NCBI RefSeq assembly: GCF_004010195.1
Contig: NC_057718.1
Coordinates: 48,024,507-48,088,506 of the forward strand
Length of the DNA: 64,000 nt
Origin: Chiloscyllium plagiosum
Taxonomy: Eukaryota
Reading direction: 5' to 3'
Each line of letters opens with the position of its first letter. Positions within the stretch are counted from its first letter, which is position 1. Shown here piece by piece: positions 10,900 through 56,978 of the stretch. Position numbers and translations under genes: made by a program. The notes below the pieces were generated by a model, which searched no databases, had not been told where the DNA came from, and saw only the letters and a list, made by a program, of their open reading frames with translations.

Positions 10900-12180
10900 A
10901 GTTGTTCCAGTATCCGGTTGTAAGTTTACTCCTGGAGGTACATTTTCAGACGTTTCATCACCATGCTAGGTAACATCATCTGTGAGCCTCCAGTAAAGAG
11001 CTGGTTTTCTGTCCCACTTTTTATTAACGTGTCTTGGTCTCTTAAGGTGGGTGTTGTGATTTCTGGTTCTTTTTCTCAGAGCTTGGTAAATGGGATCCAA
11101 ATCGATGTGTTTATTGATGGTGTTCCGGTTTGAATGCCAGGCCTCTAGGAATTCCCATGCATATCTCTTTTTAGCCTGACCTAGGATGGATGTGTTGACC
11201 CAGTTGAAGTGGTGTCTTCTTTGTGTGTATATAAGGATATTAGTGATAGTGGGTAGTTAAGTATTTGGTCTGTGTGTTGTGAAGAGAGAATTGAGATGGA
11301 TGATAAATGTTGACGAAACCAGCGATGACCAGATCACACACAGACTAGAAACTTAACTACGGAAGCAATCATCCCAATACCCACAAATGGAGCTGCATCA
11401 GGCCACAATACGCTGCAGCACCCATGAATTACGAGCAGCAGAAGAAAAATACCTATACAGCGTACGGGTACCCCATAAACACAGTCCATCGATTTCTAAA
11501 CAACAAAACCAAACAAGCAAACACAACATGCCCAGAAACTCTAGTCACATTACTATACATCAAAGACATCTCTGAAGTGACTAGCAGACATAATCTGACC
11601 CCTTAGCATCATGACAGCCCACAAACCTACCAACACACTTAAACAAAAGCTGATGAACCTAAAGGACCCTATACCCATAACCAGCAAAACGAATGTCATT
11701 TACAAAATACCATGAAAGGACTGCAAGAAACACTACATCAGACAGACAGGCAGAAAACTAGCACCAGGATACAAACACTAACTGGCCACTAAAAGACATG
11801 ACCCACTATCACTAGTATCCTAACATGCAGGAGAAGAAGGACACCACTTTGACTGGGACAACACATCGATCCTAGGACAGGGCAAACAGCGACACGCACG
11901 GGAATTCCAAGAGGCTTGGCATTCAAATTGGAACTCTATCAATAAACACTTAGATTTGGACCCCATTTACCAACCTCTGAGAAAAAGAAACAGAAATTAT
12001 ATCAGCCATCTTAAGAGACCAAGACACATAAATAGCAAATGAGACAGAACACCAGTGCTTCACCAGAGGTTCACTGATGATGTTACCTAGCATGGTGACG
12101 AAACGTCTGAAAACAAACCTTGCAGCTTATAGAGCAAACTTACAAACTGACTGTCAACCTGAGCTATACATCTTCTCAAA
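10900..12180 (+). mobile_element. Penelope-like element fragment (family B): inverted terminal copy (10900-11255) followed by a degenerate GIY-YIG 3' end and pLTR
   Basis: NVIYKIP..KDCKKHYI remnant at ~11690-11740. 10915-11250 is the reverse complement of ~11800-12150. Hammerhead motif at 12070. Confidence 0.8.
12070..12111 (+). ncRNA. Minimal hammerhead ribozyme motif (Penelope family B)
   Basis: TTCA-CTGATGA-T-GTTACC(TAGCAT)GGTGAC-GAAA-C-GTC-TGAA. Intact core, 6-bp stem II, stem I TTCA/TGAA, GUC triplet. Confidence 0.8.
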
Positions 12181-12199
12181 GATTCTTCCAGTATAGCTA

Positions 12200-13705
12200 T
12201 AATATTGGTATTCACCCAGAAATATGGAAAATTGCCCAGGTATGTCCTGTGCACAAAATGTAAGATAAACCTACACCAATTTCCAGTTGTTCAGTCTTAA
12301 CATCAATTTTCAGCAAAGTGAGAATCAATTGATTAGAGTCAATTCTAGGACAAAGGAAGGTGATTGTATGTCCTGTGCACAAAATGTAAGATAAACCTAC
12401 ACCAATTTCCAGTTGTTCAGTCTTAACATCAATTTTCAGCAAAGTGATGGAAAAGTTATCAACAGTACTATCATGTAGCACTTCCTCAGCACTAACCTAC
12501 TCCATGCTGCTCAGTTTGGGTTCTGCCAGGACACTCCATTCCATATTTCATTATAACCTTTCCACACAGACAAAAAGCTGAATTTCCCAGAGTTGAACTA
12601 AGAGTGACTGCTCTTGACATAAAGGCAGCTTTTGACCATGTATGGAATCAAGAAACCATAGCAAAATTGGAATCAGTGAGAATCAATTGATTAGAGTCAA
12701 TTCTAGGACAAAGGAAGGTGATTGTGGCTTTGGAAGTCTATTAGTTCAGTCCCAGGACATTGCTGCAAGAGTTCCTCAGGGAAGTGTTATCGGCCCAATC
12801 ATCTTCGGCCAAATTGTCAAGCAGCTTCCTTCCATTATAAGATCAGAAGTGTGGATATTTACTGATGATTGCGCATTACTATTCATAGTTCCTCATCAGA
12901 CACTGAAGCAACTTATGCTCATGTGCAACAAGACCTAGACAATATCCAGGTTTGGTTTGATAAATGGCAAGCAAAATTCATGTCACACAAGTGCCAGCAA
13001 TGACTCTCCAAAGAGGGAGAATCTAACTTTTGCCATATATATTTAATAGCATTACCATTGCTGAATCCCCCATTATCAATATTCTGGGGATTACCATTGA
13101 CTAGAAAATTAACTAGATCAGCCATATAGACTGTCCACAAGAGAGGGATAGAGGCTTGGAATTCTGTTCCATGTAACTCACTCTCTGCCCACCATCTACA
13201 ATTCAGGAATATGTTGGAATATTCTTTACTTGACTGAAAACTCAATAATACTCAAGAATCTCAACACTATCCAAGACAAAGTGAATACTTGATTGGCACT
13301 TTATTCACCATTTTCCCCATTCACTCCCATGCACAGTGCAGCAGTGTGTATCATCTATAAGATGTATTGCAGTAATTCACCAAGACTCGTCTGACAGTGT
13401 CTCTCAAACAAATTACCTCTGTCACCTCAAATGGCAAGGGCTACTGATGCAGTAGAGTACGACCACCTGAAAGATTCCCAGCAAGCCACACACCATTCGG
13501 TTTAGGAACTGTATCAGTGTTCCTTCGCTGTTGCTGGATCAATATCCAAGGCATCCTTCCCTAAATAGCAGTGCAAATGTACATATACTCCAAAGACTAT
13601 TAAAGTTCAAGAAGGTAGCTCCTCACCATTTTATGAAGAGAGAATTGAGATGGATAATAAATGCTGCCTAAACTAGCGATGACGAAATCCCATAAATTAA
13701 TTTTG
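12200..13705 (+). mobile_element. CR1/L2-clade LINE, 3' part of ORF2 (RT) and tail, degenerate
   Basis: VPQGSVIGP and FTDD RT motifs (ORF 12642-12938); tail ttcaagaaggtagctcctcacc. Confidence 0.75.
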
Positions 13706-13929
13706 AAAATGCCTTCAATAGAAATGAGGGTAAGGTGCTGACATATGCCGCTCCATAGTGCATTATGTAAGCACTTGTGAGCTAAACCTACAGATTTAGC
13801 CACTCCAGGCAAGTTCAAACATTACGGTAATTAGTAATCAGAATCAAAATTATGTGCTGAATGTAGACCTTCAAGCAAGCAGGCTTTATTAATTTGTTTG
13901 TGATTTATTTTCACCCATTGGAAAAAACC

Positions 13930-14380
13930 CTCTAAATCTAGGCTGATGCATCAAATGTACGGTTAGATGTACCCTACAAGGCCCTTCAGATGGAGACAAA
14001 AGATTCCCAAAGCACTATTTCAAGCTAAAGAGTAGGCAGGCTCTCCAAGTGATATACAAGCAGAAAATGCAAGAAATGTTCAACAGGTTCGTCAGCATCT
14101 GTGGAAAGAAAGAGAGTTAATGTTTTAAATTGATTACCTTTTCTTATCAGCCCTAATCTCTTACACTGTTCTAGCCAACGTTAATTTCATGACTAACATG
14201 TTCAAAACAGATTATCTGGTCTTTAGTTTATTATTCTTCGTGAGAACTTGCTGAGTGCAAATTAGCTGATATTTTAACACTTGAGGACAGAGGCTGCAAT
14301 TCACGATTACTATTTTGTTCTGTAAAGGATTTTAGAATGTCCAGTGGTTGTGAAAATAAAATTGCAAATCCTTCTTCTTC
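13930..14380 (+). mobile_element. SacSINE1/Deu-type SINE, degenerate
   Basis: aaatctaggctga...aaaacagattatctggtc...ttgctgagtgcaaattagctg...ctgtaaag matches the recalled Deu SINE body. Confidence 0.55.
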
Positions 14381-14799
14381 AGTCAGCATTAATCATGTAT
14401 CATTGATATTTTGCACTTACCTTAGAAGTTTAGGTTCCTATAACTGAGGATCTTTGTGACTTTAGAGCCCAGCTTTAAAGCTGTAAAGTTCAGAGAAGCA
14501 GAATACTTGTGATAAGGTAAAGAGAGATACTGAGGGTGAATTGAACTTTAAAACTAAGTTATCTAATTGTAAAACATTGCACTGATAAAGAATAGAAAAT
14601 GATAACATTCCAATTCCCTTCATAACCAATAGTAAACCAACAATTCATTGTTGGTCTATGAGTAACTTGTATTCCTGATAGCCTATCTGTAATTTGTAAT
14701 AATGTTACCTGTTGGTACATATTTTGAAAAATACAGAAAAAAATCTCCCTATACTCACAAGATGAAGTCTGTCTGTCCAGACATTATTAGTTTTTTTTG

Positions 14800-18620: not shown

Positions 18621-18954
18621 AGACCCCTTAGAGTCATAGAGTTATATAGCACTGAAACAGGCCCTTCAGCCTGACTTGTCCATGCTGACCAAGTTTCTGA
18701 AACTGAACTCGTCCAATTTGCCTGCGTTTGTCCCATTTCCCTCTAAACCTTTCCTATCCATTTCTAAATGCCTTTTAAATGTTGTAATTGTACTTGCTTC
18801 TACCAAATGTATATAAACATCTTTCCTGCATGAGTTAAAAACACCTTTTTTATTTGCAATTGCACAGTAGCGCAGGGATATCAAATTTCTGTATCATTTG
18901 TGTCTCTGTATTTCTCTCTGCAAAAACTGTATGGAATGAATTAAGAACCGAGAA

Positions 18955-19862
18955 TGTACAAGGTACAATTAGTACGTTTGCTGATGGCACTAAAATAGGA
19001 GGTATCATGGACAGTGAGGAAGGTTATCAGAAATTGCAGCAGGACCTTGACCTGCTGGAGAAGTGGGTTGAGAAATGGCACATGGAGTTTATTGTAGAAA
19101 AGTGTGAAGTCTTGCATTTTGGAAAGTCAAATCAAGGTAGGAGTGTCGTGGAAGAGAGGGATCTTAGACTTCAAGTTCACAGTTCTCTGAAAGTGGAGTC
19201 ACAGGTAGACAGGACAGTGAAGAAGGCTTTTGGTACACTGGCCTTCAGTCAGGGCACTAAGTAAAGAAGTTGGGAAGTTATGTTGCAGTTATACAGGACA
19301 TTGGTGAGGTCGCACTTGGAGGAGTGTCTTTAATTTTGGTTACTTTGTTATAGGAAGGATGTTATTAAACTGGAAAGCGGGCAGAAGAAATTTACAAGGA
19401 TGTTGCCTGGACTCAATGATCTGACTTATAGGGAGAGGTGAGACAAGCTACGTCTTTTTTCTTTAGAGTGTAGGAGACTGAGGGGTGGGACCTTATAGAG
19501 GTGTATAATATCATGAAAGGCATGATAGGGTGAATGCACTCAGTCTTTTTCTCAGGGCTGGGGAATTGAGGACTTGAGGGCATTAGTTTAAGGTTAAAGG
19601 GGAAAGAATAAAAGAGATCCTGAAGGGCAATGTTTTTACACAGAGAGTGGTACACATATGGAATGAGGTACCAGTGGAAGTTGTTGAGGTGGGTATAGTA
19701 ACATTTAAAAGGCATGTGGACAAATACTTGGAAAGTAAAGGATTAGAAGGATATCGGCCAAGTGCAGAGAAATGGGGTTAGTGTGGGTGGACATTTTGGT
19801 CGGCATGGACCGGTTTAGGCCAAAGGGCCTGTCTCCTTGCTGTAGCACTCTATGATTCTATT
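18955..19862 (+). mobile_element. CR1 LINE 3' part (RT C-terminus and tail); an inverted CR1 tail precedes it at 18630-18800
   Basis: FADGTKIGG...LQQDLD..KW.MEF..EKCEVLHFG; ends in ctctatgattcta. Confidence 0.85.
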
Positions 19863-19949: not shown

Positions 19950-22900
19950 TTTAAAGAGGAGGTAACGTTTGACTGCAGACAACTATTATCTGAAGACTGC
20001 TGACAATGAAGGAGTGAGTTATGGGCATCATTAATCTTTTCTCCCAACATTTTGTGGCTGTTCTGTCCTGACATTCTTCTGGCTTGTCAGGTGTTGAGAG
20101 GTGATTTGTACTTGACACATTTTGGTAATACCCCTTTCCTCAGGCATTCATGTAGGAAATACAGTTGTTCGCGGGTGGCACTCAGTCGGATGGCGTTGGT
20201 TCCCCATCTTTGAGCTTGTTTGAGCGTATTGCGCCCATAGATGTTTGTGATTTTTGAGAAGATCTGTAGCTCAGGTTGAGGTTCAGATTGTAAGTTTGCT
20301 CGCTGAGCTGGTAGGTTTGTTCTCAGATGTTTTGTCACAATGGTAGGTAACATCATCAATGAGTCTCTGGTGAAGTGCTGGTGTTAAGTCCCACTTTCTA
20401 TTTATTTGTCTTGGTCTGTTAAGGTGGATGGTATCATTTTCAGTGATATCAAATCACCTTCAACGACAAGACCTACAAACAAATCAACGGGACACCCATG
20501 GAATCTCCAATATGAATATTCTTAGCAGAAACAGTAATGCAGAGACTCGAATGTACAGCCCTCCCAATGATCCAACCCAAGCTTTCAGTCTGCTATGTGG
20601 GTGGCACCTGTGTCATCACTAAACGGAACAAATTAGAGCAATTCTACAATATCATCAACAACATCTTTACTGGCATAAATTTCATCAATGAGGAAGAGAC
20701 CAACAACAGACGCCCCTTCCTAGATGTCACAGTGGAATGAACAGTCAATGGAGAACTACAGACCAGCATCTACAGGAAAGCAACACACACACAACAGATA
20801 CTCAACTACAGGAGCAATCATCCCAACACCCACGAACGGAGCTGCATCAGGACATTATTTAAATGGGCCACAACACATTGCAGCACCCAGGAAGTATGAG
20901 CTGCAGAAGAACAGTGGGTACTCGATATACACAGTCTGCCGATGAACCTAAAGGACCCTATAGCAACAACCAGCAAAACAAATGTCATTTACAAAATACC
21001 GTGCAAGGACTGCAACAAGCATTATATTGGAAAGATAAGCAGGAAACTAGCCACCTGGATACACGAGCACCAACTAACCACCAACAGACATGACCAACTA
21101 TCACTAGTATCCTCACATACAGACGAACAAGGACAACATATCCATCTAGGACAAGCTAAACAGAGACACACATGGGAATTTCGAGAGGCCTGGCATTCAT
21201 ATCAGAACTCCATCAATAAACACATCGATTTGAACCCCATTTACCAACCTCTGAGAAAAAGAACTGGAAATGATATCATCCACCTAAAATGGGAAACCAA
21301 TGCTATCCGACTGAGCGCCACCCACGAACAATTGTATTTCCTACATAAATGCCTCAGGAAGCAGGTATTACCAAAATGTGACAAATACAAACCACCTTTC
21401 AACTTCCCACAAGCCAGAAGAATATCAGAACAGACCGGACACAGAACGTTGCGAGAAATGATTAACAATACCCACAACTGACTCCACGGGAAATTTTGCG
21501 CCAAAAGACTTTGTACATCTACACGACTGACCAGGAATGGACAAGCACGTTAGAACGCGCCATCAGCATCAAACAACAACAGACCAAGGCAAAGAAAAAA
21601 CTATCCCTACAAGAAAAGCTGGACAAGCTCGCACAAAAGAACAAGACAGACAATTCAGAAGCTTGGATTAAGAACCCGTTGAATTGACCACGAACAAACA
21701 TGGAGAATGCCGTCCTAGTAAGAGGGATGAACTACAACTACAGAGACATGGACAAAAAGGACTTCCTAGCAGCATTGGAATCAGCCCTAGAAGACAATGG
21801 ACTCAAGAAAGAAACCCAGCACACCATCAGACAGCAGCACCAACACTAAGCAGGAAGAAAGAAGAGAACACCCTCAACACACAGGAAAGGTAAGCCCTAA
21901 AAGGACTCAGAAAAGACAGAAATATTGTAATCCTACCTGCAGACCGTAATCCTAAACAGAACACAATACATTGAAAAGCTGAACCCACTGCTCACAGATA
22001 CCAACACCTACCAACAGATGGCGATGGAGCCGACTCCACAGCTAGAAAACTGTATCATAGCATAACCGAAGAAACTCCAGACATCAGGTAAAATTAACAA
22101 AACAGATCTCCAAAGAAAGAAACCTGAAGGATCCAACATACCCTGCTTCTATGGATTACCTAAGATGCACAAACCAAGGGCCCCCCTCAGACTCATTGCC
22201 TCACCCCCTGGCACACCGACATACAAACTAGCAAAAGAAATTCACCATAAACAGAAATACCTTGTAGAAGACTCATGCCACTCAACCCATTCACCCAAGA
22301 ATTGTTGAACGTCATCAAAGATACCAAGATAGAAGAGGACAAAGGCATGGTCTCCTTCGATGTATTGGTTCTATTCACATCAATTAACATCAGCCTGGCC
22401 AAAAAAACACTGACCTCACTACTAGATGAACCAAGGACACAAACACCAGACAGCACCAACTGCATCAACCAGGACAGAATCCTCAAGCTAGTAGATCTGT
22501 GCCTCACTACCCACTTGATCTTCAACGACAAGACCTACAAACAAAACAACAGGATACCCATGGAATCACCAATATCAAGATTCTTAGCAGAAGCAGTCAT
22601 GCAGGGACTCGAACGAACAGCCCTACCCATGATCCACAACCCAAGCTTTCAGTCTGCTATGTGGCTGACACCTTTGTCATCATGAAATGGAACAAATTAG
22701 AGGAAACCTACAATGTCATCAATAGCATCCTTACTGGCATAAATTTCACCAAAAAGGAAGAGAACAACAACAGACTCCCTTTCCTAGATGCCACAGTGGA
22801 ACGAACAGTCATTTGAGAAATACAGACCAACGTGTATAGGAAAGCAACACACTTAGACCAGATACTCAACTATAAGAGCAATCATCCCAACCCCCACAAA

Positions 22901-25900
22901 CTGAGCTGCATCAGGACATTATTTAAATGGGCCACAATACATTGCAGCACCCAGGAACTGTGAGCAGCAGAAGAAAAATACTTACACAGCATATTCAAGA
23001 ACAGCAGGTACCCGATAAATGGAGTCCGCCAATTCTTAAACAACGTACTCAAACAAGAAGACACAACATGCCCAGAGACTCTTGCCACACTTCAATCCTA
23101 TCTGGTCTAGTAGCCTGTATCTCAGTATTCTCCTCGACAACATTGTCTTTTTCTAGTGCGAATACTGATGAAAAATATTCATTTAGTACTTCTCCTATCT
23201 CCTTGGACTCCATACACAACTTCCCACTACTGTCCTTGATTGGCCCTAATGTTACTCTAGTCATTCTTTTATTCATGATATACCTATAGAAAGCTTTAGG
23301 GATTTCCTTGATCCTATCTGCCAATGACTTCTCATGTCCCCTCCTGGCTCTTCTTAGCTCTATCTTTAGGTCCTTCCTGGTTAACTTGAAACTCTCAAGT
23401 GCCCTAACTGAGCCTTCAACTCTCATCCTACCATAAACCTTCTTCTTTCTCTTGACAATAGATTCAACTTTTTTAGTCAACCACGGCTCCCTCTCTCGAC
23501 CACTTCCTCCCTGCCTGACAGGTACGTACTTATCAAGGACACACAGTAGCTGTTCTGTGAATAAGCTCTACATTTCAATTGCGCCATCCACTGCAGTTTC
23601 CTTCCCTATCCAATGCATTCTAAATCTTGCCTAATCGCATCATAATTGCCTTTTCCCCAGCTATAAATCTTGCCCTTGGTATATACCTATCCCTTGCCAT
23701 CACTAAAGTAAACATAACCGAATTGTGGTCATTATCACCAAAGTGCTCACCTACCTCCGAATCTAACACCTGGCCGGGTTCATGACCCAGTATCAAATCT
23801 ATTGCAGCCTCACCCCTTGTTAGCCTGTCTACATACTGTGTCATGAAATCCTCCTGCACATATTGGACAAAAACTGACCCATCTAAAGTACTGTAACTAT
23901 AGTATTTCCAGTCAATATTTGGAAAGTTAAAGTCCCCCCATAACAACTACCCTGTTACTCTCCCTCCTATCCAGAAACATCTTTGCTATCCTTTCCAATA
24001 TATCTCTGGAACTATTCGGAGGTCTATAGAAAACTCCCAACAGGATGATCTCTCCTTTCCTATTTCTAACCTCAGCCCATTCTACCTCATAGACGAGTCC
24101 TCAAATGTCCTTTCTGCCACCGTAATACTGTCCTTAATTTACAATGCCACACCTCCCCCTCTTTTACTGAAACATCTAAATCCTGGAACCTGCAACAATC
24201 ATTTCCTCTCTATCCGTGTCTCTGGAATGGCCACAACATCACGGTCCCAGGTAACGGCCCATGTTGCCAGTTCACCCACCTTATTTCGGATGCTCCTGGC
24301 GTTGAAGTAGACACTTCAAACCTCCTTCTTGCTTACGGCGAACTCTTACGACCTTGAAACCTTATTTCTGACCTCAATATTCTCAACCTCCTAAACATTG
24401 GAATTGCAATTTAGGTTCCCATCCCCTTGCTGAATTAGTTTAAACCCTCTCGAAGAGCGTTAGCAAATTTCCCTCCCAGGATATTGGTATCCCTCTGGTT
24501 CAGGTGTAGATCATCCTGTTTGTAGAGGTCCCACCTACCACAGAATGTTCCCCAATTATCCAGGTATCCAAAACTCTCCCTTCTGCACCATCCCTGTAGC
24601 CATGTCTTCAACTGATCTTTCTCCCTATTCCTCGCATCTTGGGTAACAAACCAGAGATAAACAACTCTGATTATTCTAGCTCTAGGCTTCCACCCTAGTT
24701 CCCTGAATTTCTGTCTTAAGTCCCCATCCCTTTTCCTATCTATGTCGTTAGTGCCTATGTGGACCACGACTTGGGGCTGTTCCCCCTCTCCTTAAATGCC
24801 CTGAAAACATGATCCGAGACATCACGGACCCTGACACCTGGGAGGCAACATACCAACCATGAGTGTCTCTCGTTCCCACAGAACCTCCTATCTGACCCCC
24901 TAATTATGGAGTCCCCAATGACTAATGCTGTGTTCCTCTCCTCCCTTTCATTCTGAACAACAGGGACAGACTCTGTGCCAGAGATCTGTACCTCATGGCT
25001 TACCCATGGTAAGTTGCTCCCCGCCCCCCCCAAACAGGATTCAAAAAGGTACACTTGTTATTGAGGAGAACGGTCACACGGGGTCCCTGCACAGTTGCCT
25101 TTCTGTCCCTGACTGTAACCCAACTGCCTTTTTCTTGTACCTAGGGTGTGACTACTTCCCTGCAACTCCTCTCTGTAACTCCCTCCACCTCCTGAATGAT
25201 CTGGAGTTCATCCAGCTCCAGTTCCAGTTTCCTAACACGGTTTTTGAGGAGCTGGAGTTGGGTGCACTTCCAGCAAATGAAGTCAGCAGGGAACTAGTGG
25301 TGACCCTTACCGCCCATATTCTGTAGGAGGAACATTCAACTGCCCTAACCTCCATTCCCACTATTCTAAATTCCCAAAGAGAGTATTGAAAAATAAAGAA
25401 AAGAAAAAGTCACCTTACCAATCCGATGCACAGAACTCTTTTTTTTTGGTTAGAGGAGGATGGGTGGGAGACACCACCGAAATAGTATTTTGGGTAACGC
25501 AACAGCCCAAATGTATTACTTCGCTTACTCAGCAGTCCCATGTCCGCTCCTGCTCAGTGTGCACTCTGCCTATTCACGAGTTAACTTTTTAAAGCAGTCA
25601 CTTCCTGGCAGTCCCCTGGTTGTCACTCCCACTCTTCCTGCTGCTAAACAAAAATGGATGGCCCCGATACAAAGAAGGACACCACTTTGACTGGGACATC
25701 ATATCCATCCTAAGACAGGGTAAACAGAGACATACACAGGATTTCCGAAAGGCCTGGCATTCAAATTGGAACTCCATCAATAAATGCATTGATTTGGGCC
25801 CCCTTTACCAATCTCTGAGAAAAAGACCCGGAAATGTTATCACCCACCTTAAGACACATAAATAGAAAGCAGGACAGAACACCAGTGCTTCACCGCAGGC

Positions 25901-26012
25901 TCACGGATGATGTTACAAAGCATGGTGATGAAATGTCTGAGAACAAGCCTACCAGCTCAGCGAGCAAACTTACAACCTGAACCTCAACCGAGCTACAAAT
26001 CTTCTCAAAAAT
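19950..26012 (+). mobile_element. Tandem, partly inverted Penelope-like element (family B) with RT and GIY-YIG remnants, interrupted by a CR1
   Basis: VIYKIPCKDCNKHYIGK (GIY-YIG), MVSFDV..LFTSI, PMESPIS and YVADTF RT motifs; inverted segment ~20060-20440; pLTR tail 25670-26012. Confidence 0.85.
23091..25650 (-). mobile_element. CR1 LINE 5' portion: ORF1 (SGNH esterase) and ORF2 endonuclease; 3' end missing
   Basis: VIGDSIIRG and VHIGTNDI (esterase blocks); GDFNFPNIDW and GDNDHNSV (APE domain); KAFYRYI linker. Confidence 0.85.
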
Positions 26013-30286: not shown

Positions 30287-32645
30287 CGAGGAGAACGTGA
30301 GGACTGCAGATGCTGGAGATCAGAGCTGAAAATGTGTAGCTTGAAAAGCGCAGCAGGTCAGGCAGCATCCAAGGAACAGGAGAATCGACGTTTCGGGCAT
30401 GAGCCCTTCTTCAGGAATGAGGAAAGTGTGTCCAGCAGGCTAAGATAAAAGGTAGGGAGGAGGGACTTGGGGGAGGGGTGTTGGAAATGCGACAGGTGGA
30501 AGGAGGTTAAGGTGGGGTTCTGTCTTGGTGGCGATTGGAGGGGAGGGGCTCAAGGGCGGAGGAGCGGGAAGTGGAGGAGATGCGGTGGAGAGCATTGTCA
30601 ATCACGTCTGAGGGGAAATTGCGGTCTTTGAAGGAGGCCAACTGGGTTGTACGGTATTGGAACTGGTCCTCCGGGGAGCAGATGCGGCGGAGACGAAGGA
30701 TTTGTGAATATGGGATGGCGTTTTTACAGGGGGCAGGATGGGAGGAGGTGTAGTCTAGGTAGCTGTGGGAGTCGGTCAGTTTATAGTAAATATCAGTGTT
30801 GATTCGGTCGCCCGAGATAGAAATGGAGAGGTCTAGGGAGGAGTCTGAGACGGACCAGGTAAATTTGAGGTCGGGGTGGAAGGTGTTGGTAAAGTGGATG
30901 AACTGTTCAACCTCCTCGTGGGAACACGAGGCAGCGCCGATACGGTCATCGATGTAGCGGAGGAAAAGGTGGGGGGTGGTGCCAGTGTGGCTGCGGAAGA
31001 TGCACTGTTCCACATATCCTACGAAGAGGCAGGCATAGCTGGGGCCCATGCGGGTGCCCATGGCTACTCCTTTGGTTTGGAGGAATTGGGAGGATTGGAA
31101 GGAGAAGTTGTTCAGGGTGAGGACCAGTTCAGTCGGTCGAAGGAGGGTGTCAGTGGAAGGGTACTGGTTGGTACAGCTGGAAAGGAAGAAACGGAGGGCT
31201 TTGAGTCCTTTGGGGGATGGAGGTGTACAGGGACTGGATGTCCATGGTGAAGATAAGGTGTTGGGGACCGGGGAAGCGAAAATCATGGAGGAGTTGGAGG
31301 GCGTGGGTGGTGTCCCGAACATAGGTGGGGAGTTCTTGGACTAAGGGGGACAGGACCGTGTCGAGGTATGCAGAGATGAGTNNNNNNNNNNNNNNNNNNN
31401 NNNNNNNNNNNNNNNNNNNNNNNNNNNNNNNNNNNNNNNNNNNNNNNNNNNNNNNNNNNNNNNNNNNNNNNNNNNNNNNNNNNNNNNNNNNNNNNNNNNN
31501 NNNNNNNNNNNNNNNNNNNNNNNNNNNNNNNNNNNNNNNNNNNNNNNNNNNNNNNNNNNNNNNNNNNNNNNNNNNNNNNNNNNNNNNNNNNNNNNNNNNN
31601 NNNNNNNNNNNNNNNNNNNNNNNNNNNNNNNNNNNNNNNNNNNNNNNNNNNNNNNNNNNNNNNNNNNNNNNNNNNNNNNNNNNNNNNNNNNNNNNNNNNN
31701 NNNNNNNNNNNNNNNNNNNNNNNNNNNNNNNNNNNNNNNNNNNNNNNNNNNNNNNNNNNNNNNNNNNNNNNNNNNNNNNNNNNNNNNNNNNNNNNNNNNN
31801 NNNNNNNNNNNNNNNNNNNNNNNNNNNNNNNNNNNNNNNNNNNNNNNNNNNNNNNNNNNNNNNNNNNNNNNNNNNNNNNNNNNNNNNNNNNNNNNNNNNN
31901 NNNNNNNNNNNNNNNNNNNNNNNNNNNNNNNNNNNNNNNNNNNNNNNGGCGGCCTGTCTCCCCAATATAGAGGAGGCCACATCGGGTGCAGCGGATGCAA
32001 TAGATGATGTGTGTGGAGTTGCAGGTGAATTTGTGGCGGATATGGAAGTATCCCTTGGGGCCTTGGAGGGAAGTAAGGGGGGAGGTGTGGCCGCAAGTTT
32101 TGCATTTCTTGCGGTTGCAAGGGAAGGTGACAGGAGTGGAGGTTGGGTTGGTGGACCTGACGAGGGAGTCACGGAGGGAGTGGTCTTTTCGGAACGCTGA
32201 TATGGGAGGGGAGGGAAATATATCCCTTGTGGTGGGGTCCATTTGGAGGTGGCGGAAATGACGGCGGATGATACACTGTACATGGAGGTTGGTGGGGTGG
32301 TAGGTGAGGACCAGTGGGATTCTGTCCTGGTGGAGGTTGGAGGGGCAGGGCTCAAGGGCGGAGGAGCAGGAAGTGGAAGAGATGCGGTGGAGGGCATCGT
32401 CGACCACCTTGGATGCTGCCTGACCTGCTGCGCTTTTCCAGCAACACATTTTCAGCTCTAATCTCCAGCATCTGCAGTCCTCACGTTCTCCTCGAAGATT
32501 ATTACCACGCCTCCCTTGTCTGCCGGTTTGATGGAGGTTGGGGTTGGAATGGTGGGAGTGGAGGGCTGCATGTTCCGAGGGTGAGAGGTTGGAGCGGGTG
32601 AGGGGGTGGAGAGGTTGAGGCAGTTGGTGAGAGGGGTGGAGCTTC
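30287..32645 (-). mobile_element. Penelope-like element (family A), RT and GIY-YIG, tandem/partial, spanning a gap
   Basis: GVAMGTRMGPSYACLF and RYIDD (RT); HIIYCIRCTRCGLLYIGETGR (GIY-YIG); terminal repeat with hammerhead at 30383; inverted terminal piece 32410-32495. Confidence 0.9.
30383..30418 (-). ncRNA. Minimal hammerhead ribozyme motif (Penelope family A)
   Basis: Reverse complement ATTC-CTGAAGA-A-GGGC(TCAT)GCCC-GAAA-C-GTC-GATT; core intact. Confidence 0.75.
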
Positions 32646-32859
32646 AACATACATTCTGGGTTATTTTGTATCAAATAACTATACAACCAAAAAGATTAAT
32701 GCCGGTAATTAATAGCCCCTTGTTTTACACTTTTTAAGAGTTACTTGTTATTTTGAAGTTTTTTGACACTTAAATTTCTCATTTCTAATAAATTCCAGTA
32801 TTTTCCCAGAAATACAGTGACATTCTAATTCCATTTGGCTTGGACGCTGAAAGAAGTCT

Positions 32860-33649: not shown

Positions 33650-34400
33650 GACACCTAATTTCACCGTTGGACTTTCGTTACCTTAACACACACATTTATT
33701 GTATCTGTTGCTCCAGATGTGGTCTCCTCTACATTGTGGAGACAGGACCTGTACTTGCAGAAGGCTTCAGAGAACAACACCCCCCACCTATGGCCTGACC
33801 ACTTTAACTCCCTCAGGCGGAAGTGGGTACTGCAGATGCTGGGGATTAGAGTCAAGGTTAGAGTGGTGCTGGAAAAGCACAGCAGATCAGGCAGCATCCG
33901 AGGAGCAGGAAAACTGAAAACGTTGATTTTCCTGCTCCTCGGATGCTGCCTGACCTGCTGTGTTTTTTCCAGCACCACACTATCTTCACTTTAACATCCC
34001 CAATGACATGCAGGTTTTGGGCCTCCTCCGTTGCCCAACCCTTAACATCCAACACCACATCTTCCACCTTGGGACCCTCCAACCACTTGGGATCAATGTG
34101 GATCTCAGATCAAACCTTTCAGCTTGGCACCACCCTCTTGACCTCTCCTACCTGTCCATCTTCCTTCCCACCTATTTACTCTACCCTCCTCTCTGACCTA
34201 TCACCTTCACCTCCCATCTTCATTTGCCTATCACATTCTCAGCCCTCTTTCCTCCACAGCCCCCCCCCCCCTCTGATTTATCTCTCAGCCCCCTTGGCCC
34301 ACAAGCCGCATTCCTAATGAAGAGTTTATGTTCGAAACATCAATTCTGCTGCTCCTTGGATGCTGCCTGACTGTGCTTTTCTAGCACCACAGACTCAACG
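33650..34400. mobile_element. Degenerate Penelope 3' fragment with an embedded family A hairpin (~33820-33985)
   Basis: tgtatctgttgctccagatgtggtctcctctacattg (GIY-YIG remnant); inverted repeat agtggtgctggaaaagcacagcag / ctgctgtgttttttccagcaccacact. Confidence 0.7.
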
Positions 34401-40609: not shown

Positions 40610-40853
40610 TGAGTGTGGTGCTGGAAAAGCACAGCAGGTCAGGCAGCATCTGAGGAGCAGGAAAATCGATGTTTTGGGAAAAAGCCCTTCATCAGGAATA
40701 AGGCTTGTGAGTCAGGGCAGCCTTATTCCTGATGAAGGGCTTTTGCCCGAAACATTGATTTTTCTGCTCCTCGGTTGCTGCCTGACCTGCTATGCTTTTC
40801 CAGCACCACATTCTCGACTCTAATCTTGAGCATCTGCAGTCCTCACTTTCGCC
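40610..40853. mobile_element. Palindromic family A element with two hammerhead-like cores
   Basis: Arms 40612-40705 and 40719-40811 are reverse complements; CTGATGA-AGGGC-TTTT-GCCC-GAAA at 40729-40752. Confidence 0.8.
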
Positions 40854-41119
40854 TAAGTTTCTAATAATGTTAATCTAGTATTTAACAGTACTACTGTTCT
40901 TTGTATAATTAATTGTCAAGTTTCTTATTTATTGTATTTACCTATTTTTCTTGTATTATACTTACTTTTTGTATTTTAAATAAACGCAGAGATTCTTTTG
41001 CCCTGAAACACCTGTCTACTGCCTCTTCATTTCACATTCCCTAAATAAGACATGTCTAGAACCAGGAAACTGAGTATTTTAACCATTTAAAAGTCAGGAA
41101 ATAACTGATTGCAAACCAG

Positions 41120-41971: not shown

Positions 41972-42007
41972 AGTCGACGTTTCAGGCAAAAGCCCTTCAT
42001 CAGGAAT
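41972..42007 (-). ncRNA. Minimal hammerhead ribozyme motif (family A)
   Basis: Reverse complement ATTC-CTGATGA-A-GGGC(TTTT)GCCT-GAAA-C-GTC-GACT. Confidence 0.65.
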
Positions 42008-42533: not shown

Positions 42534-44193
42534 AAAACAATTTCAATTAGAGTCATTAATCAGAATTCCTACCCTGGGTCCCAATGCAATGTCACCACCC
42601 TTCTTTCCCCTCCCTGCAAGCTTGGTCAGAACGTAGGAGTCTTGGGAGTTTATGCTCACCACTCAAACGCGTTTTTGAAGTGCGCCCGCTTACTGAGGTT
42701 TTTGCCATTGGTTCTTCTGGTTCATAACAGGTCTGTGTCTGGTAGCTCTCGTTCATAGAAGTTCTGGTTGGCCTCCCTTTCTCAGATGTATTTGTTCTGA
42801 TGAGCCCCTTCGTTTGGCCTCCCTGTTCTTGGTTCTCAATTTGGCCTCTGGTTTCTCGTTCCAAAACTGCTTGTTGGGAGTGGGAGTCTGTGGGGAAACT
42901 TTTTGTGCAAAAGCTTGTTTTCGAAAAATACTCTCTTCTCAGGTGAGATTTGAGACCTCCCCTCAAATCAGTACTTTTCTTTAAGCTCTTGATGTTCTTT
43001 TCTGCAGTTAATTAGCATTCCGATGGTTAGAGTATGTGTGTGAATGGGTTTTGATTCAGGCTGAATGTCCAAAATTCCTGTAGGCCCCATACTGTGCATC
43101 ATGTACGTAGCCCGATGTGTAAAATCTGTCTCAAGGGGATCATTAATTTCAGTTAACGGTCCTTGTAGAGAGGAACTGTAAATTATATTTCCAGGCTGAA
43201 CAACGATTCCAGACTGACATGTTTTCTGTGAGTTATGTTTGCATATTTTCAACAGAACTCAGGGTTTTCTAAAGTTTTGAAGAGCTCAGTTTTGTCCACT
43301 ATTTTCGCTGTTGGGGACTTTTGCTCAACCTTACGTTTGCACACTAAGATCTCTCACTCCACCTACACCTCTCAGATTCTTGTTTATTGTATACTCTCTT
43401 TTAATATTTGACATCCTTAAATGTGTTACCTCCCACTTATCAGAGTTGAACTCTATCTGCGACTTTCCTACCCACTCCACTAATCCATCTCTATTATTTT
43501 GGAGCTCACGACTAACCTCTACACATGGCCAATCTTTGTGTCGTCAGTAAATTTCCCAATAGTGTGTCTCCCCACCTCCCAGCATTCAAGTCCAAATCAT
43601 TATTGTATAAAACAAACAGCAAGGGTCTCAACACCAAGCCCTGTGGAATATCACCATAAGTAGTCACCATAAGTTCGGTATCAGCTTAAATTTTTGAAAT
43701 TTAGTACAAGGTGCCTTTGAATTGATAACTTATGTTCGAGTCTCACATGACAGATTGGTCAAATAGTAAAATCCCATGACATATAGGGTAATTTGTTGAA
43801 TTATATCCAAAATTGGCTTAGTAACAGAAAACAAAGGGTAATGGTCAATGGGTGCCCCTGCAAATGGAAAGCTGATACAGAACTTATGGTGACGACTTGT
43901 AAATAGTACAACACCAGGTCATTGTCCAACAGATTTATTTGGTACTTGCAATAAACTTGTTAGACTATAACCTGATGTTGTGTGACTTTTGACTTTGTTC
44001 ACCCCAGTCCAACACCAGCACCTCTACATCATACATGTAAATATGCACTTTTAACATACAGGAACATCTCTTGAATAACCCGATTGTTGATAGAATCTTC
44101 AAATTTCAACTTTAAAACTGTATGTTTGATCCTATGTTTGTAACCCAAATTACTGCCATCTGTCTTAATGGGTATTTTCACTAACATTTGCAG

Positions 44194-46710: not shown

Positions 46711-47344
46711 GTAAGTACCGTACTAAGGCTATTCTAATCACAGCATCTTCTGCTCTGATTGTGAGCTTGCATTTTATGACTTAATGCATTTTTTTTGCTT
46801 TCTCCCTCTAACTTTTGGTATAAGTGGATGGTTTTCATTAAGGGTATGTTTTGTGCAGACAGATTCTCTTAAAGCTTTGCAAAGTCAAAGACTCGTGGTG
46901 TAACCCACATGTTTGAAATTCTAGAAATGAATTGAAGTACAACTCTATTTCAGGCAATTTTTAAGCACACTGTCAGTTGTTGGAGTGGTTGTTTGGATAT
47001 ATTGAAAATTCTGGAAATCTGAGTAATCAGGAAAAAAATTGGCGGATTCCATTCATCAGACATTCATAGTACAAGTTGTTGCTTTATTCGTGCTTATATC
47101 ATTGTAAAGATCTAAATGATTGGAGGAACGGGCAGCAGAAGTTCTAGTGTTGTCTGCATTCATTTTCTCGAGTTGTTTGATCTATTGCTTTATGATTCTT
47201 TTGTTGAAGAAGGTGGAGGTGTAAGAGGATATAGCCACATTTTATTTTCTATGGGATGTGTTCTGCCGCTCAATATCCTTGTCAATGTTTCTTTTAAAGA
47301 TGGTGAAGAAAGGATGCCCTGTATCATCAATAAGGATTGGATTG

Positions 47345-49420
47345 GACAAAATTAAAAATCAGACAACACCAGGTTATAGTCCAACAGATTTATTTGGAGA
47401 CATTCTCAAGATAGCTTTTAACGATAGGTGCCATCTCAGCTCAGATAATGCAGTGAAGGTGTGAGGTTAAAGTCGGTCTGTGTCCCAATGTTAGGTCAAA
47501 CTGATTCTATTTCTAAAGTGGGGTTTATAGAATTTTACATGGATTTATGCAGTTTTTGAGCAAAATAAAATGTAATTCTGCAAGTACAAATTCGCCCCAC
47601 AAACTTGTGTGTGTGTATATGCAGGGGAGACCGAGTGAGTGTGTGCATGTGTGGGGGTGAGTGTCTGTGAATGTGTGTTTGGGTATAAGTGTGTGAGAAG
47701 GTGCATGTGTTGGTGTGAGTGTGGGGGGTGTATGTTTGAGCGAATGAGAGAGAGCTTCTGTATAGAGAGGGTCTGCATGGGTGAGTGGGTCTGTAGGAGA
47801 GAGTGTGGGCGTGTGTGCCTCTGTGCCCGCATGCATGAGAGTGTATAGTGTAGTGGGGTCACCTGTAGTGCAACATGAACCTAATGTCCCAGTTGAGGCC
47901 ATCCCCATTGGTACCGAACATGGCTATCAGCCACTTGCATTGTTGCCTGTCCCATAGTCCGCCTTGGAGGAATGTCCCGGACTGCTGAAGTGTTCCTCGA
48001 CTGGGACAGAACATTCCTGGCTGGTGATTGTTGTGCAGTGTCCATTCATCTGTTGCTGCAGCCTCTGCTCTGTCTTGCCAATGTACCGTGCCTCTGGGCA
48101 TTCTTGCCTGCAGCGTGTGAGGTAGACAATGTTGGCTGAGTCACATGAGTACTTGCCGCATACTTGGTGGGTTGTGTCCCCACGTGTAATGGTGGCATCC
48201 GTGTCAACACTGTGACACGTCTTGCAGCATCTACCGTGACTGGGTTGCATGGTGTTGTTCTGAGGCAAACCTGTTAGCTCTGAACAATGATCTGTTTGAG
48301 GTTTGGTGATTGTTTAAAGGCAAGAAGTGGAGGTGTGGAGAAGGTCTTGGTGAGGTGCTCATCCTCATCAATAATGTGTTGCAAGCTGCAAAGTAGTTTT
48401 TCAGCTCCTGGAAAGTGCTTGACAACAAAGGGTACCATATCTGTTGCAGCTCATGTCTGTCTCCTGAGGAGGTCATTACGGTTTCTTGCTTTGGCATGTC
48501 AGAACTGGTGGTACTTGCAAGTGTCTGTCACGTTCCTCCTCATCTGAACAGATCCTGTGAATGCATAGTGTTTCTCCATAGAGGATAGCAGTTTTATTAT
48601 ATTTAGGGTGGAAGCGAGACAAATGTAGCATAGTGAGGTTATCTGTGTATTTACAGTAGAGTGAGGTGCACATCCCTGATGGCGATGCATATGTCCAAGA
48701 ATGAGACAGATACTGGAGAGTAGTCCATGGTGAGTTTGATGTTGGGATGAAACTCATTCATGTCCCTGTGTAGTTGTTTCAGTGACTCTTCGCCATGGGT
48801 CCCGAGGAGGAAAATGTCGTCAATATATCTGATGTATAGTGTTGGTTAGAGGTCCTGCATAGAGAAGAAGTCTTGTTCGAATCTGTGCATGAAAATTTTG
48901 GCATATTGGGGTGCACATTTGGTCCCCATGTCTGGATGAAGAACTGGTTGCCAAAGGTGAAAACGTTGTGGTTGAGGATGAAGCGGATGAGTTGTAGGAC
49001 ATTGTTTGGAGATTGGCAGTTGTCGGTATTGAGTACTGAGGCTGTTGCCATGAGGCCATAATTGTGGAATGCTGAAACATCCATTGTGATGAAGAATGTT
49101 CCAGGTTCAACTGGTCCGTAGGTGCTGAGTTTCTGTATGAAATCTGTAGTGTCGTGACAGAAACTGGGGGTCCTCTGTACAATAAGTTTCAACATCTCTT
49201 CGATATAACTCACACAGGGTCCCGTTGCCTGGTATGATGGAACGTTGGCTTTGTGTATCTTCGGAAGATAGCAGAAGTCGCCTACGTGAGAAATACATGG
49301 GAGAGGATGCGTAGGGAACTCTGAAGGACTGAATCAAAAGTCTTGATCAATGTTTTTAGTTCATGGATGTGCTCTTTGGTTGTAGCGGCTGGTCATTGCC
49401 TGGAGTGTTCCTGGTTCTTT
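47345..49420 (-). mobile_element. Penelope-like element (family C), degenerate RT and GIY-YIG, in NEK2 intron 4
   Basis: IVYLTRCRQECPEARYIGKT (GIY-YIG); FITMDVSA and LIRFILNHNVFTF (RT); (TG)-rich 3' region 47605-47850. The terminus acaacaccaggttatagtccaacag is shared with the 56.8 kb hairpin. Confidence 0.85.
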
Positions 49421-55872: not shown

Positions 55873-56295
55873 GCAAGGTTTGAGAAGATTTGTAGCTTAG
55901 GTTGAGGTTCTGGATGTAGGTTTGCTCGCTGAGCTAGAAGGTTCATTTCCAGATGTTTCGTTACCCTACTAGGTAACATCTTTAGTGGGCCTCAGGCGAA
56001 ACACTGCTGATAAATCCTGCTTTCTATTTATATGTTTGGGTTTCTTTGGGTTGGTGAAGTCATTGCCTGTGGTGAATTCACTTCTGGTTCTTTTGCTCAC
56101 CCCCTGAGAAAAAGAACTGGAAGTGATTTCACCACAGGAAATGACATCACCAGTCCAAAGAAACCCAAACATATAAATAGAAAGCAGGACTTATAAGCAC
56201 TGCTTCACCTGAGGCCCACTGAAGATGTTGCCATGTAGGGTGATGAAACGTCTGGAAATGAACCTTCCAGCTCAGCGAACAAACGTACATCCAGA
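55873..56295. mobile_element. Palindromic family B (Penelope pLTR) element
   Basis: ~55910-56090 is the reverse complement of ~56110-56294; hammerhead cores at ~55945-55990 (degenerate) and 56219. Confidence 0.8.
56216..56255 (+). ncRNA. Minimal hammerhead ribozyme motif (family B), sense in NEK2 intron 6
   Basis: CCA-CTGAAGA-T-GTTGCC(ATGTAG)GGTGAT-GAAA-C-GTC-TGG; stem I CCA/TGG. Confidence 0.7.
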
Positions 56296-56666
56296 TACAT
56301 TTTCCTATTACCTCAGCAGCAGCAGGTTCAAACTGATCAAGTTCTGCCTATTGTGATTATATAATGTGTTTTTTCTGTCATAAGATCTGAGTTCCATTCA
56401 GTTGTGTGATTGGAAGAGGAAGCATTGGTGCAATTGTCATTCGTGAGCATTACTTTCACAGTAATTGTCATTTATAGACTCAAGACCTTTGAACTTGCCT
56501 TCATGTTGGATCTCTGCAGAACTTCATGGGCAACAGCTTTTCACAATCTTTTCACAGTTAACTATTTTGTATACAAAAAGTAGATTTTAGATGTGTTAAA
56601 TAGTAAAATGTGTGTGGAAATTGTACTTGGTACTGTTACCAATGCTTTTTACTTATTTTTCTTCAG

Positions 56667-56721
56667 AACGTGAGCAAGAGCTTTGCATTCGAGAGAGACT
56701 GGCAGAAGAAAAGTTTTCTAG
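56667..56721 (+). CDS. NEK2: NEK2 coding exon 7 (55 nt)
   Basis: QREQELCIRERLAEEKFSR (human, recalled: QKEQELCVRERLAEDKLAR). Strong polypyrimidine/cag acceptor, donor AG|GTAAC. Confidence 0.92.
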
Positions 56722-56755
56722 GTAACATCCAACTTAGTGTTTGCCTTTGAATGGA

Positions 56756-56978
56756 TGATTTGGAGATGCCGGTGTTGGACTGGGGTGTACAAAGTTAAAA
56801 ATCACACAACACCAGGTTATAGTCCAACAGGTTTAATTGGAAGCACACTAGCTTTCGGAGCGACGCTCCTTCATCAGGTGATTGACAATCACCTGATGAA
56901 GAAGCGTTGCTCCGAAAGCTAGTGTGCTTCCAATTAAACCTGTTGGACGATAACCTGGTGTTGTGTGATTTTTAACCT
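56756..56978. mobile_element. Palindromic family C element with a 10-bp TSD
   Basis: Arms 56795-56884 and 56886-56976 are reverse complements. TSD TTTGAATGGA at 56746-56755 and 56979-56988. Confidence 0.85.
56845..56924. ncRNA. Back-to-back hammerhead motifs (family C) on both strands
   Basis: Minus strand: CAC-CTGATGA-A-GGAGC(GTC)GCTCC-GAAA-G-CTA-GTG, perfectly paired. Plus strand (56890-56924): same motif with one stem II mismatch. Confidence 0.78.

Follow-up and report, generated by a model that had tools for sequence, protein, structure and literature searches.

Copies of hammerhead-bearing Penelope-like elements in Chiloscyllium plagiosum probably begin at the RNA start and not at the predicted ribozyme cut

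Introduction

Minimal hammerhead ribozymes with a palindromic helix III have already been published for Penelope-like elements (PLEs), including the Poseidon and Neptune elements of fish; their dimeric cleavage is a published hypothesis, and their activity in vitro is weak (Cervera & de la Pena 2014, PMC4209133). Purified Anolis PLE protein cuts and extends both strands, starts reverse transcription (RT) at two internal sites, and uses uncut RNA, and the hammerhead of the Anolis PLE cuts only with protein (PMC11167929). The role of the PLE hammerhead is still termed unclear (PMC8557442).

Here we analyze such motifs in a 64,000-nucleotide stretch of the Chiloscyllium plagiosum genome (hereafter, the window) and in copies sampled from that genome. 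In themselves, such motifs are nothing unusual in fish-type genomes, and their kind has already been described. Like the PLE hammerheads of PMC4209133, they have no helix III loop, a palindromic 15.1–16.1 tetramer, an extra base before stem II, and G10.1–C11.1, and they form several divergent families in one genome, mostly solo or as opposite-strand pairs. Unlike those of Schistosoma, which have helices of 7–8 and 4–5 bp (PMC4209133), the family that we call A has shorter helices. In PMC4209133 we noted neither an AGCU/CUA variant such as our family C nor a mapping of 5′ ends against the cut.

As interpreted below, the insertions would resemble those of Anolis Poseidon PAc (Frangieh et al. 2024, PMC11167929) in having two internal RT start sites that bound a 'tail', extension of both strands, an uncut RNA template, and a ribozyme near the ORF start. 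The PAc ORF, however, starts inside the ribozyme, whereas the family C ATG lies at +93, at the long start site, and we noted in PMC11167929 neither the strict long-plus-short pairing nor the 5′ step that we report. With endonuclease-bearing PLEs (Arkhipova 2013, PMC3846280; Craig 2021, PMC8557442; Schostak 2008, PMC2377424) our elements share an inverted 5′-truncated copy, target-site duplications, an optional tail of 30–40 nt at one end, and a TATA plus Inr-like motif in the terminal repeat (pLTR); we noted there no pLTR with a poly(A) site in use within it, as in family C. Non-LTR retrozymes (Li et al. 2026, bioRxiv 10.64898/2026.07.22.740005) are likewise non-coding, hammerhead-bearing, and pLTR-related, but they are by the definition given there direct tandem arrays, whereas the pieces here are solo or inverted. 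The genome is a very large natural record of PLE insertion ends, and this record points to exact, testable positions for RNA starts, poly(A) sites, and RT starts.

Results

A strict motif scan of the 64-kb window found six CUGANGA-N-stem II-GAAA cores (12074+, 30414−, 40729+, 42003−, 56219+, and 56877−), all where a preliminary description of this DNA had placed hammerhead motifs (it gave minus-strand copies by their low coordinate, and we give the core positions 30414−, 42003−, and 56877−). Requiring a stem II of at least 4 bp left five motifs, whereas 100 dinucleotide shuffles averaged 0.21 and never gave more than 3. BLAST searches of the window with the seven best units as queries then yielded 16 copies that retain most of the motif (8 A, 6 B, and 2 C), among them every decayed A and B copy previously named. 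The whole consensus, which more than a dozen motifs had been said to fit, is satisfied by 5 of the 16 (30414−, 42003−, 12074+, 56219+, and 56877−): 40729+, put forward as a fitting A motif, reads ACAU/AUU with a non-palindromic tetramer, and 56893+, its counterpart in C, has a stem II broken at pair 2.

Table 1. Hammerhead motifs, element copies, and head-to-head insertions in the window.
Family	Feature	Position	Strand
A	Copy, decayed	2104..2163	-
A	Copy, GAAA to AAAA; inverted partner of 7572-7636 across N gap	6044..6109	-
A	Copy, GAAA to AAAA; inverted partner of 6044-6109	7572..7636	+
A	Broken PLE: RT fragments (YIDD), CxxxxCxxC linker, start of GIY-YIG-like domain (by eye)	30287..32695	-
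A	Hammerhead, intact; stem II GGGC/GCCC, ACGU, GUC; predicted cut 30387/30386	30383..30418	-
A	Head-to-head fragment, junction close to cut	33812..34002	.
A	Copy, decayed	34306..34363	+
A	Hammerhead, decayed; left arm of head-to-head insertion 40611-40860	40666..40699	-
A	Hammerhead, decayed (ACAU/AUU); right arm of head-to-head insertion 40611-40860	40725..40760	+
A	Hammerhead, intact save G-U as first stem II pair	41972..42007	-
A	Head-to-head fragment, decayed	62366..62555	.
B	Copy, decayed; inverted partner of 12074 element	10936..10998	-
B	Hammerhead, intact; stem II 6 bp, stem I 4 bp; predicted cut after 12107	12070..12111	+
B	Copy, decayed; continues into family B ORF start (20240-20011)	20306..20375	-
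B	Broken, partly tandem element; RT fragments 22251-22816, GIY-YIG-like fragment 20900-21290	20458..26012	+
B	Copy, decayed; at 3′ end of element 20458-26012	25885..25957	+
B	Copy, decayed; left arm of palindrome 55879-56295	55932..56004	-
B	Hammerhead, intact with G-U pairs; right arm of palindrome 55879-56295	56215..56256	+
C	Head-to-head fragment without core; arms begin ~+3 and ~+9 past cut	43908..44036	.
C	Remnant of C-related element, 44-73% aa to C ORF pieces; 3′ repeat without hammerhead	47334..49416	-
C	Head-to-head insertion: long arm 56751-56884, short arm 56885-56978	56751..56979	.
C	Hammerhead, intact; GGAGC/GCUCC, AGCU, CUA; predicted cut 56849/56848	56845..56881	-
C	Hammerhead, stem II broken at pair 2	56889..56925	+

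The motifs have the core (CUGANGA ... GAA-A) and the N-U-H triplet of minimal type-I PLE hammerheads. Fully intact hammerheads made up 33/104 (A), 3/18 (B), and 6/23 (C) of the sampled copies, and the first stem II pair, after one extra base, was G-C in 83/104, 11/18, and 14/23, respectively, with the remainder mostly G-U. As had been proposed, helix III positions are palindromic and form no stable helix in a monomer, the commonest tetramer being ACGU in A (53/104) and B (11/18) and AGCU in C (14/23); the non-ACGU tetramers of A and B are mostly CpG-type transitions. The pairing described for stem I was borne out in B (3–4 bp) and C (3 bp), but in A, for which no stem I had been listed, only 2 bp precede a mismatch and one further pair (C-G, U-A, mismatch, A-U). 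The helices had also been called covarying, which was mostly a comparison between families whose sequences are unrelated. Two-sided changes within families are few and confined to pair 3 of B stem I (U-A 10, C-G 3, and G-C 3 among 18 copies) and pair 2 of A stem II (G-C 94 and A-U 5 among 104), both being plain, tree-unaware counts over neutrally decaying copies. The covariance-model check suggested at that stage, run on the window with Rfam, gave 23 matches at E≤5, none of them to a hammerhead family; the motifs here lack helix III. The output was sub-threshold only, mostly miRNA models matching the palindromes.

Judged from their sequences, the window motifs are minimal type-I hammerheads, predicted to be catalytic, inside the pLTRs of three PLE lineages. 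That the lineages are distinct, as first suggested, is supported by RT identities of 36% over 162 aa (A versus C) and 23% over 96 aa (B versus C) and by terminal repeats with no common DNA match beyond 13 nt. Pfam RVT_1 matched C at E 1.4e-8 and A only at E 0.045; the Pfam profile search gave no GIY-YIG match, and that domain was recognized by eye. In the translations RT is followed by a C-terminal GIY-YIG within one ORF, which was broken in all copies encountered, and a Cys linker between the two is visible in A and C, with none in the GIY-YIG-like fragment of the B element at 20458–26012. Motifs read by eye suggest that A and C are of Neptune/Nematis type and B of Poseidon type. The B element is interrupted at ~23100–25600 by LINE-like sequence on the opposite strand (by eye), and the A element at 30287–32695 contains an N gap (31382–31947) and an inverted end piece (32407–32494).

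The pLTR lies on both sides of the ORF in C (upstream of the ATG in locus L143 and downstream of a GIY-YIG fragment in L031–L055) and in B (window 20011–20439 and 25669–26012); for A we found the 3′ copy only. Relative to the predicted cut, the C repeat has a TATA at −66, an initiator-like A at −36, the hammerhead, AAUAAA/AUUAAA at about +11 to +17, a poly(A) site at +29/+32, a GU-rich tract, and the ORF start codon at +93, such that in long C copies (e.g., L143) the TATA box stands 30 nt before A(−36); where C has its TATA box, family A offers no more than a weak TTTATC. Most copies are dead end pieces of 60–140 nt, and single head-to-head insertions account for roughly half of those in A and two thirds of those in C. 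Close pairs within the window are likewise inverted, so dimerization in cis is impossible, and one transcript contains one sense copy in a long hairpin. No array of two or more direct tandem units, each with a hammerhead, occurs in the window. In the C insertion at 56751–56979 the junction falls at the predicted start site, and the flanks share a 10-nt word, a probable target-site duplication.

We mapped copy ends against the predicted cut in 80 stretches of 10 kb drawn at random from the genome (771,210 called bases), which contained 168 A, 21 B, and 54 C fragments, or very roughly 7e5, 9e4, and 2e5 genome-wide. In A, 59 of 156 5′ ends fell in −33..−24, versus 14 in the preceding 40 nt (binomial p 1e-28), and in C, 16 of 53 fell in −38..−29, versus 3 (p 3e-9). 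At the cut itself (0..+2) the random sample had no pile-up, with two A ends (~2.8 expected from the local mean) and no C ends, and the cut was spanned by 114/156 A and 39/53 C copies. Abutting pairs accounted for 35/59 A and 12/16 C copies in the step, which solo copies showed too (24 A and 4 C). Hidden subfamily divergence was rejected as the source of the step in view of the many abutting pairs and of the solo upstream flanks, none of which were mutually alike (A 0/24, C 0/4). The A step coincides with ATT. Family B departs from the A/C pattern, its 5′ ends lying mostly at −131..−94 or further and 2/19 copies being paired.

C copies that start at −36 had an extra G at −37, a position occupied by C in the element, in 4/4 random cases and in 3/3 distinct non-palindromic cases from targeted loci. 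Including three C-bearing starts at −37 gave 7/10 overall (p 0.001), or 4/6 in the random sample alone (p 0.02); in family A the extra G was not significant (4/12, p 0.41). The flank may have supplied the G in one C case.

A long arm was combined with a short one in 33/36 A and 17/17 C pairs (50% expected), and the flanks shared a word of at least 6 nt in 28/39 A and 15/18 C pairs, compared with 8% and 10% of controls. Long copies end at +60 or +95. Partner arms were mutually closest copies in 2/24 A and 0/15 C pairs, which leaves the choice between one and two templates undecided.

RNA run X20 comes from a relative, with 2789 of 3683 placed reads <95% alike. Among its reads, 384 had poly(A) loose ends at +29 and 498 at +32. 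Depth dropped from 1275 to 522 over this site, where 0/135 genomic copies have A-rich sequence; a poly(A) hexamer was present in 34/41 random copies. Beyond the site depth held near 520, which other copies may supply. X20 had no flagged pile-up of begins or ends and no cap-adapter ends among the loose ends listed; poly(A)-captured reads cannot contain the 30-nt 3′ product of cleavage. In family C, the GT at the cut is a weak splice donor and +71 offers a good acceptor; for X20 the listing contained no splice joint. Many X20 reads probably derive from host transcripts that terminate in a copy.

Discussion

Copies of these elements probably begin where the element RNA starts, just before the motif, and not at its cut. 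The best explanation, which we consider reasonably probable, is that the short copies arose as cDNAs that were primed from both ends of the target DNA and ran off the end of capped, uncut RNA. The RNA would start at −36 in C and about −31 in A. The RT-endonuclease would make a staggered cut, prime both target ends at about +60 and +95 of the 5′ repeat, copy through the uncut ribozyme, and run off the capped end, at times adding a cap-copied G, and the two cDNAs would then be joined head to head. The insertion-end record says that linear cut RNA is seldom the template. In master elements, as the literature suggests, the 5′ and 3′ repeats each contribute a sense ribozyme, and these two could pair via the palindrome and cut, probably with the help of protein, which would remove cap and poly(A).

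Because polyadenylation of C at +29/+32 leaves a linear mRNA without the +60/+95 RT starts at its 3′ end, long copies need a circle, read-through, or a template jump. The circle, proposed in PMC4209133, would imply efficient cutting in vivo, with the cut RNA at once ligated to a unit circle and RT crossing the joint to leave no end at +1. We regard this as possible, if on balance doubtful: read-through of the poly(A) site, beyond which X20 depth stays at ~520, accounts equally for the long copies, and in PMC11167929 RNA-seq revealed no ends at the cut. Long copies made from circles would be compatible with short copies made from uncut RNA.

A retroviral LTR is laid out as U3-R-U5, with a promoter, a start-to-poly(A) region, and a downstream RT start that gives strong-stop DNA. 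The C repeat resembles this layout by analogy, not by membership, as the PLEs here appear target-primed with a GIY-YIG endonuclease, and we saw no tRNA primer site or integrase. A bolder and rather unlikely reading is that the pLTR acts as a true U3-R-U5 LTR in which the hammerhead is R and the several hundred thousand hairpin stubs are inserted 'strong-stop' cDNAs. Transcription would then run from the first bases of the ribozyme, poly(A) would follow ~30 nt past the cut, and RT would have two start sites close to the 5′ end, each serving one target strand. Full-length copies would need a jump from 5′ to 3′ repeat or a ribozyme-made circle, for either of which the palindromic dimer would keep both RNA ends together, and in C splicing from the donor at the cut to the acceptor at +71 would leave the 5′ repeat without its poly(A) signal and without the 3′ strand of the ribozyme.

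The 5′ step might instead arise at the DNA stage, by fold-back self-priming of the cDNA or by endonuclease trimming at ATT/AAT beside the ribozyme, in which case it would be no marker of the RNA start. For head-to-head PLE palindromes, self-priming with an antisense template has been put forward (PMC3846280), whereas our data favour both-end priming on sense RNA. The A step sits on ATT, the motif at which the Anolis PLE endonuclease cuts (PMC11167929). A near-perfect junction also recurs in C (window 56885, L016, L019, and L028). Its loop of 1 nt is, however, too tight for cDNA fold-back, and it would fit two cDNAs annealing by the cap-copied C with one central mismatch. The 30-nt TATA spacing and the extra G in C, together with the step in solo copies, also speak against a DNA-stage origin, which we judge to be quite unlikely.

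We find it similarly improbable that the motif is retained for a non-catalytic role (protein binding, RNA pairing, or overlap with promoter or poly(A) signals) and rarely or never cuts. The predicted cut site shows no genomic trace, stem I of A has 2 bp, and the C triplet, CUA, is slower than GUC. Activity in vitro was weak for such motifs (PMC4209133), but core mutants of the Anolis element lose protein-assisted cleavage (PMC11167929), and three lineages in which the surrounding sequence is unrelated have all retained the catalytic core, the A15-U16 pair, and a non-G at position 17. That the short palindromes are a separate self-copying non-autonomous family (MITE or retrozyme), as very high copy number and hairpin shape might suggest, is very improbable given junctions and arm lengths that vary between copies, arms collinear with the ends of ORF-bearing elements, and a window without a hammerhead-bearing tandem array.

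C copies also bring poly(A) signals and long hairpins, which may affect host transcripts; the C insertion at 56751–56979 has a fold of −170 kcal/mol (z −23.7).

Hammerhead motifs and their decay

A strict motif scan of the window recovered six cores with a stem II (12074+, 30414-, 40729+, 42003-, 56219+ and 56877-), of which five had a stem II of at least 4 bp, against a mean of 0.21 and a maximum of 3 over 100 shuffles. BLAST found 16 copies in the window with most of the motif (eight A, six B and two C). Five of these 16 carried the whole consensus, so that the set of intact motifs in the preliminary description stood in part: at 40729+ the palindrome is lost, and at 56893+ stem II is broken. 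Stem I of family A comprises two pairs, a mismatch and one further pair only. None of the 23 Rfam matches at E ≤ 5 in the window was to a hammerhead, and the Rfam miRNA matches, which fell below gathering scores and arise from palindromes, were set aside. All of the sequence features tested fit minimal hammerheads of Penelope-like elements (PLEs), of which we consider the motifs probable members. The random sample also contained another subfamily related to A that carries a hammerhead, in which stem II is longer and the tetramer differs (loci L094 (-) near 9861, L114, L121 and L126).

Among sampled copies, 33 of 104 A, 3 of 18 B and 6 of 23 C were fully intact; in these samples the core, the first stem II pair and the palindromic helix III tetramer were the family norm, and decay was of the CpG type. 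Changes on both sides of a helix were limited to the third pair of stem I in family B (U-A 10, C-G 3, G-C 3) and the second pair of stem II in family A (G-C 94, A-U 5). The covariation originally proposed thus retains these few within-family changes and is otherwise mainly a comparison between unrelated families.

Carrier elements

The host genome of the window spans 3.56 Gb, and walking through it recovered the ORF parts of family C: a GIY-YIG-like end at locus L055 and, at L137, a reverse transcriptase (RT) with linker that Pfam matched to RVT_1 (E 1.4e-8). Pfam detected no GIY-YIG domain in nine broken ORF pieces. At locus L143 the order is repeat, tail (the segment between the two 3' end classes) and ATG, the last at +93 relative to the predicted ribozyme cut. 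Among three copies sampled ahead of the family C ORF, a single one retained a whole 5' repeat, beginning well upstream of -36, and inversions had shortened the other two. Because RT identity is 36% between A and C and 23% between B and C, and because the repeats have no common match beyond 13 nt, we conclude that there are three lineages, as first proposed. By the Cys-linker rule for naming PLE clades, as given in excerpts of PMC8557442, and with motifs read by eye, A and C would be of the Neptune/Nematis type and B of the Poseidon type.

Carrier elements and other features of the window
Feature	Position	Strand	Remarks
Family A carrier, broken ORF	30507-32695	-	YIDD, CxxxxCxxC linker, start of GIY-YIG-like domain; hammerhead at 3' end of ORF
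Family B carrier, GIY-YIG-like fragments	20900-21290, 11653-12015		Upstream of hammerhead; no linker seen
Family C head-to-head unit	56751-56979		ORF absent; 10-nt common flank
Family C, possible intron	56848-56778	-	Also at L143:304-375
Family A-like subfamily	39880-40006, 10247-10374		Copies 87.5% alike; altered core and stem II; absent from preliminary description
N gaps	6342-7304, 31382-31947		Each lies within a family A element whose ends are inverted
Exact short duplications	12240-12725		82 and 51 nt, 100%; directly after family B copy; possibly assembly or tandem artefact
Open frame	33061-33504	+	G+C-rich stretch; PLE fragments within 1 kb on both sides
CR1/L2-type LINE 3' ends (many, by eye)	9768-10069, 18627-19861, 26878-29415, 34747-35897, 50775-50870		Several in inverted pairs
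Palindrome	3911-4006		96 nt, 78% self-complementary; unlinked to A-C; Rfam miRNA matches sub-threshold

Most copies begin upstream of the cut

To map copy ends we sampled 80 arbitrary 10-kb stretches (771,210 called bases), aligned copies against a panel of long copies from several subfamilies, and, before counting, removed rows affected by a low score, N or a locus edge (12 in A, 2 in B and 1 in C). The 5' ends of families A and C piled up in a step upstream of the cut: 59 of 156 A copies started at -33 to -24, compared with 14 in the preceding 40 nt, and 16 of 53 C copies at -38 to -29, compared with 3. Most copies (114 of 156 A, 39 of 53 C) spanned the cut. A pile-up at the cut itself, as a footprint of cleavage in vivo, was rejected, with starts at 0 to +2 in only 2 of 156 A and 0 of 53 C copies. 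The flanks of solo copies were mutually unrelated (0 of 24 A and 0 of 4 C alike). Family B deviates, its 5' ends lying mostly at -131 to -94 or further, with 2 of 19 copies paired.

In long C copies A(-36) has an initiator-like context, and a TATA box lies 30 nt upstream of it. In family C, every copy starting at -36 had a G instead of the element's C (4/4 random and 3/3 distinct targeted copies); with -37 starts included, an extra G was present in 7 of 10 (p 0.001), one of which may owe its G to its flank. In family A the extra G showed no significant excess (4/12).

Head-to-head units arise from single insertions

Abutting inverted pairs held 85 of the 156 A and 36 of the 53 C copies in the random stretches. 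The 3' ends fell into two classes, near +60 and near +95, and among pairs with both arms classifiable a long arm was joined to a short one in 33 of 36 A pairs (p 1e-7) and 17 of 17 C pairs (p 8e-6), a test that leaves aside seven A pairs and one C pair with one unclassifiable arm. The locally duplicated pair at L129 is counted twice. The outer flanks had a common word of at least 6 nt in 28 of 39 A and 15 of 18 C pairs, compared with 8% and 10% in controls. This mixing of arms, together with the common flanking words, indicates that each pair is one insertion. Arm-versus-arm identity fits either one or two templates.

At random loci the common flanking words were often 12–17 nt in A and mostly 6–9 nt in C, suggesting endonucleases with different stagger. 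The family C unit in the window folds into one long hairpin, and a ribozyme dimer in cis is therefore impossible there. Four separate insertions (window 56875-56895, L016, L019 and L028) have one and the same near-perfect palindrome at the junction, with one unpaired central base.

A poly(A) site downstream of the ribozyme is used

Of 41 random copies, 34 had AAUAAA or AUUAAA ahead of the poly(A) site, and A-rich sequence followed the site in 0 of 135 genomic copies. We aligned a single-cell poly(A) library from a relative (run X20, about 2% read), of which 3683 reads fell on L029:1078-1640, most of them less than 95% alike and possibly from host RNAs ending in a copy. Loose poly(A) ends occurred at +29 (384 reads) and +32 (498 reads), and sense depth was about 1300–1400 across the cut and 522 after the poly(A) site. 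These reads show that the poly(A) site is used and that uncut RNA is present, in a library that cannot hold a 30-nt cleavage product. No pile-up of beginnings or ends was flagged over the aligned region. Two apparent signals were discarded: 202 loose ends at L029:1539 reflect a 2-nt indel of a subfamily and not a cut end, and a rise in depth from 584 to 1169 at L029:1496-1514 is explained equally by truncated copies inside host RNAs. Run X21 gave no aligned reads and was counted neither way, and contigs X1 and X3, whose RNA origin is no more than a guess, did not enter the expression evidence.

In family C a GT lies exactly at the predicted cut, followed by a branch-point, a pyrimidine tract and, 22 nt ahead of the ATG, a CAG at about +71, which makes possible a 71-nt intron that would contain the poly(A) signal and have a weak donor. 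The +1/+71 joint was absent among the 15 joints listed of 46 in X20, a poly(A) library being a poor test.

A model for insertion

We propose that the RNA would start at the 5' step, that the element's protein would prime each end of the target, using two sites in the 5' repeat, that the RT would copy through the uncut ribozyme and run off the cap, and that the two cDNAs would then join head to head; the recurring palindromic junction would follow from annealing of two cDNAs by the C copied from the cap. With poly(A) added at +30, a linear mRNA lacks the RT start sites at its 3' end, and long copies therefore have to arise by read-through, from a circle or through a template jump. It seems rather unlikely that the terminal repeat (pLTR) works like a U3-R-U5 LTR with the hammerhead as R.

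The priming steps of our model agree with the purified Anolis element, for which excerpts of PMC11167929 describe extension of both strands, two internal start sites and uncut RNA. Retrozymes differ, having direct tandem units, of which there are none in the window. Hammerhead cleavage itself enters as a hypothesis from the literature: excerpts of PMC4209133 and PMC6765202 describe PLE hammerheads as cleaving weakly as dimers, and those of PMC11167929 describe cleavage of the Anolis hammerhead as protein-assisted. Earlier papers already describe TATA/Inr motifs within pLTRs, as well as tails and inverted 5' copies (excerpts of PMC3846280, PMC8557442 and PMC2377424). None of the papers listed in our literature search was on the 5' step, the cap-derived G, the strict pairing of long with short arms or the use of a poly(A) site in pLTRs; the supplements of PMC4209133 and PMC11167929 could contain relevant data.

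Other features of the window

The end of the G+C-rich open frame on the forward strand looks to us like the first coding exon of what is presumably a NIMA-type kinase (NEK2-like).
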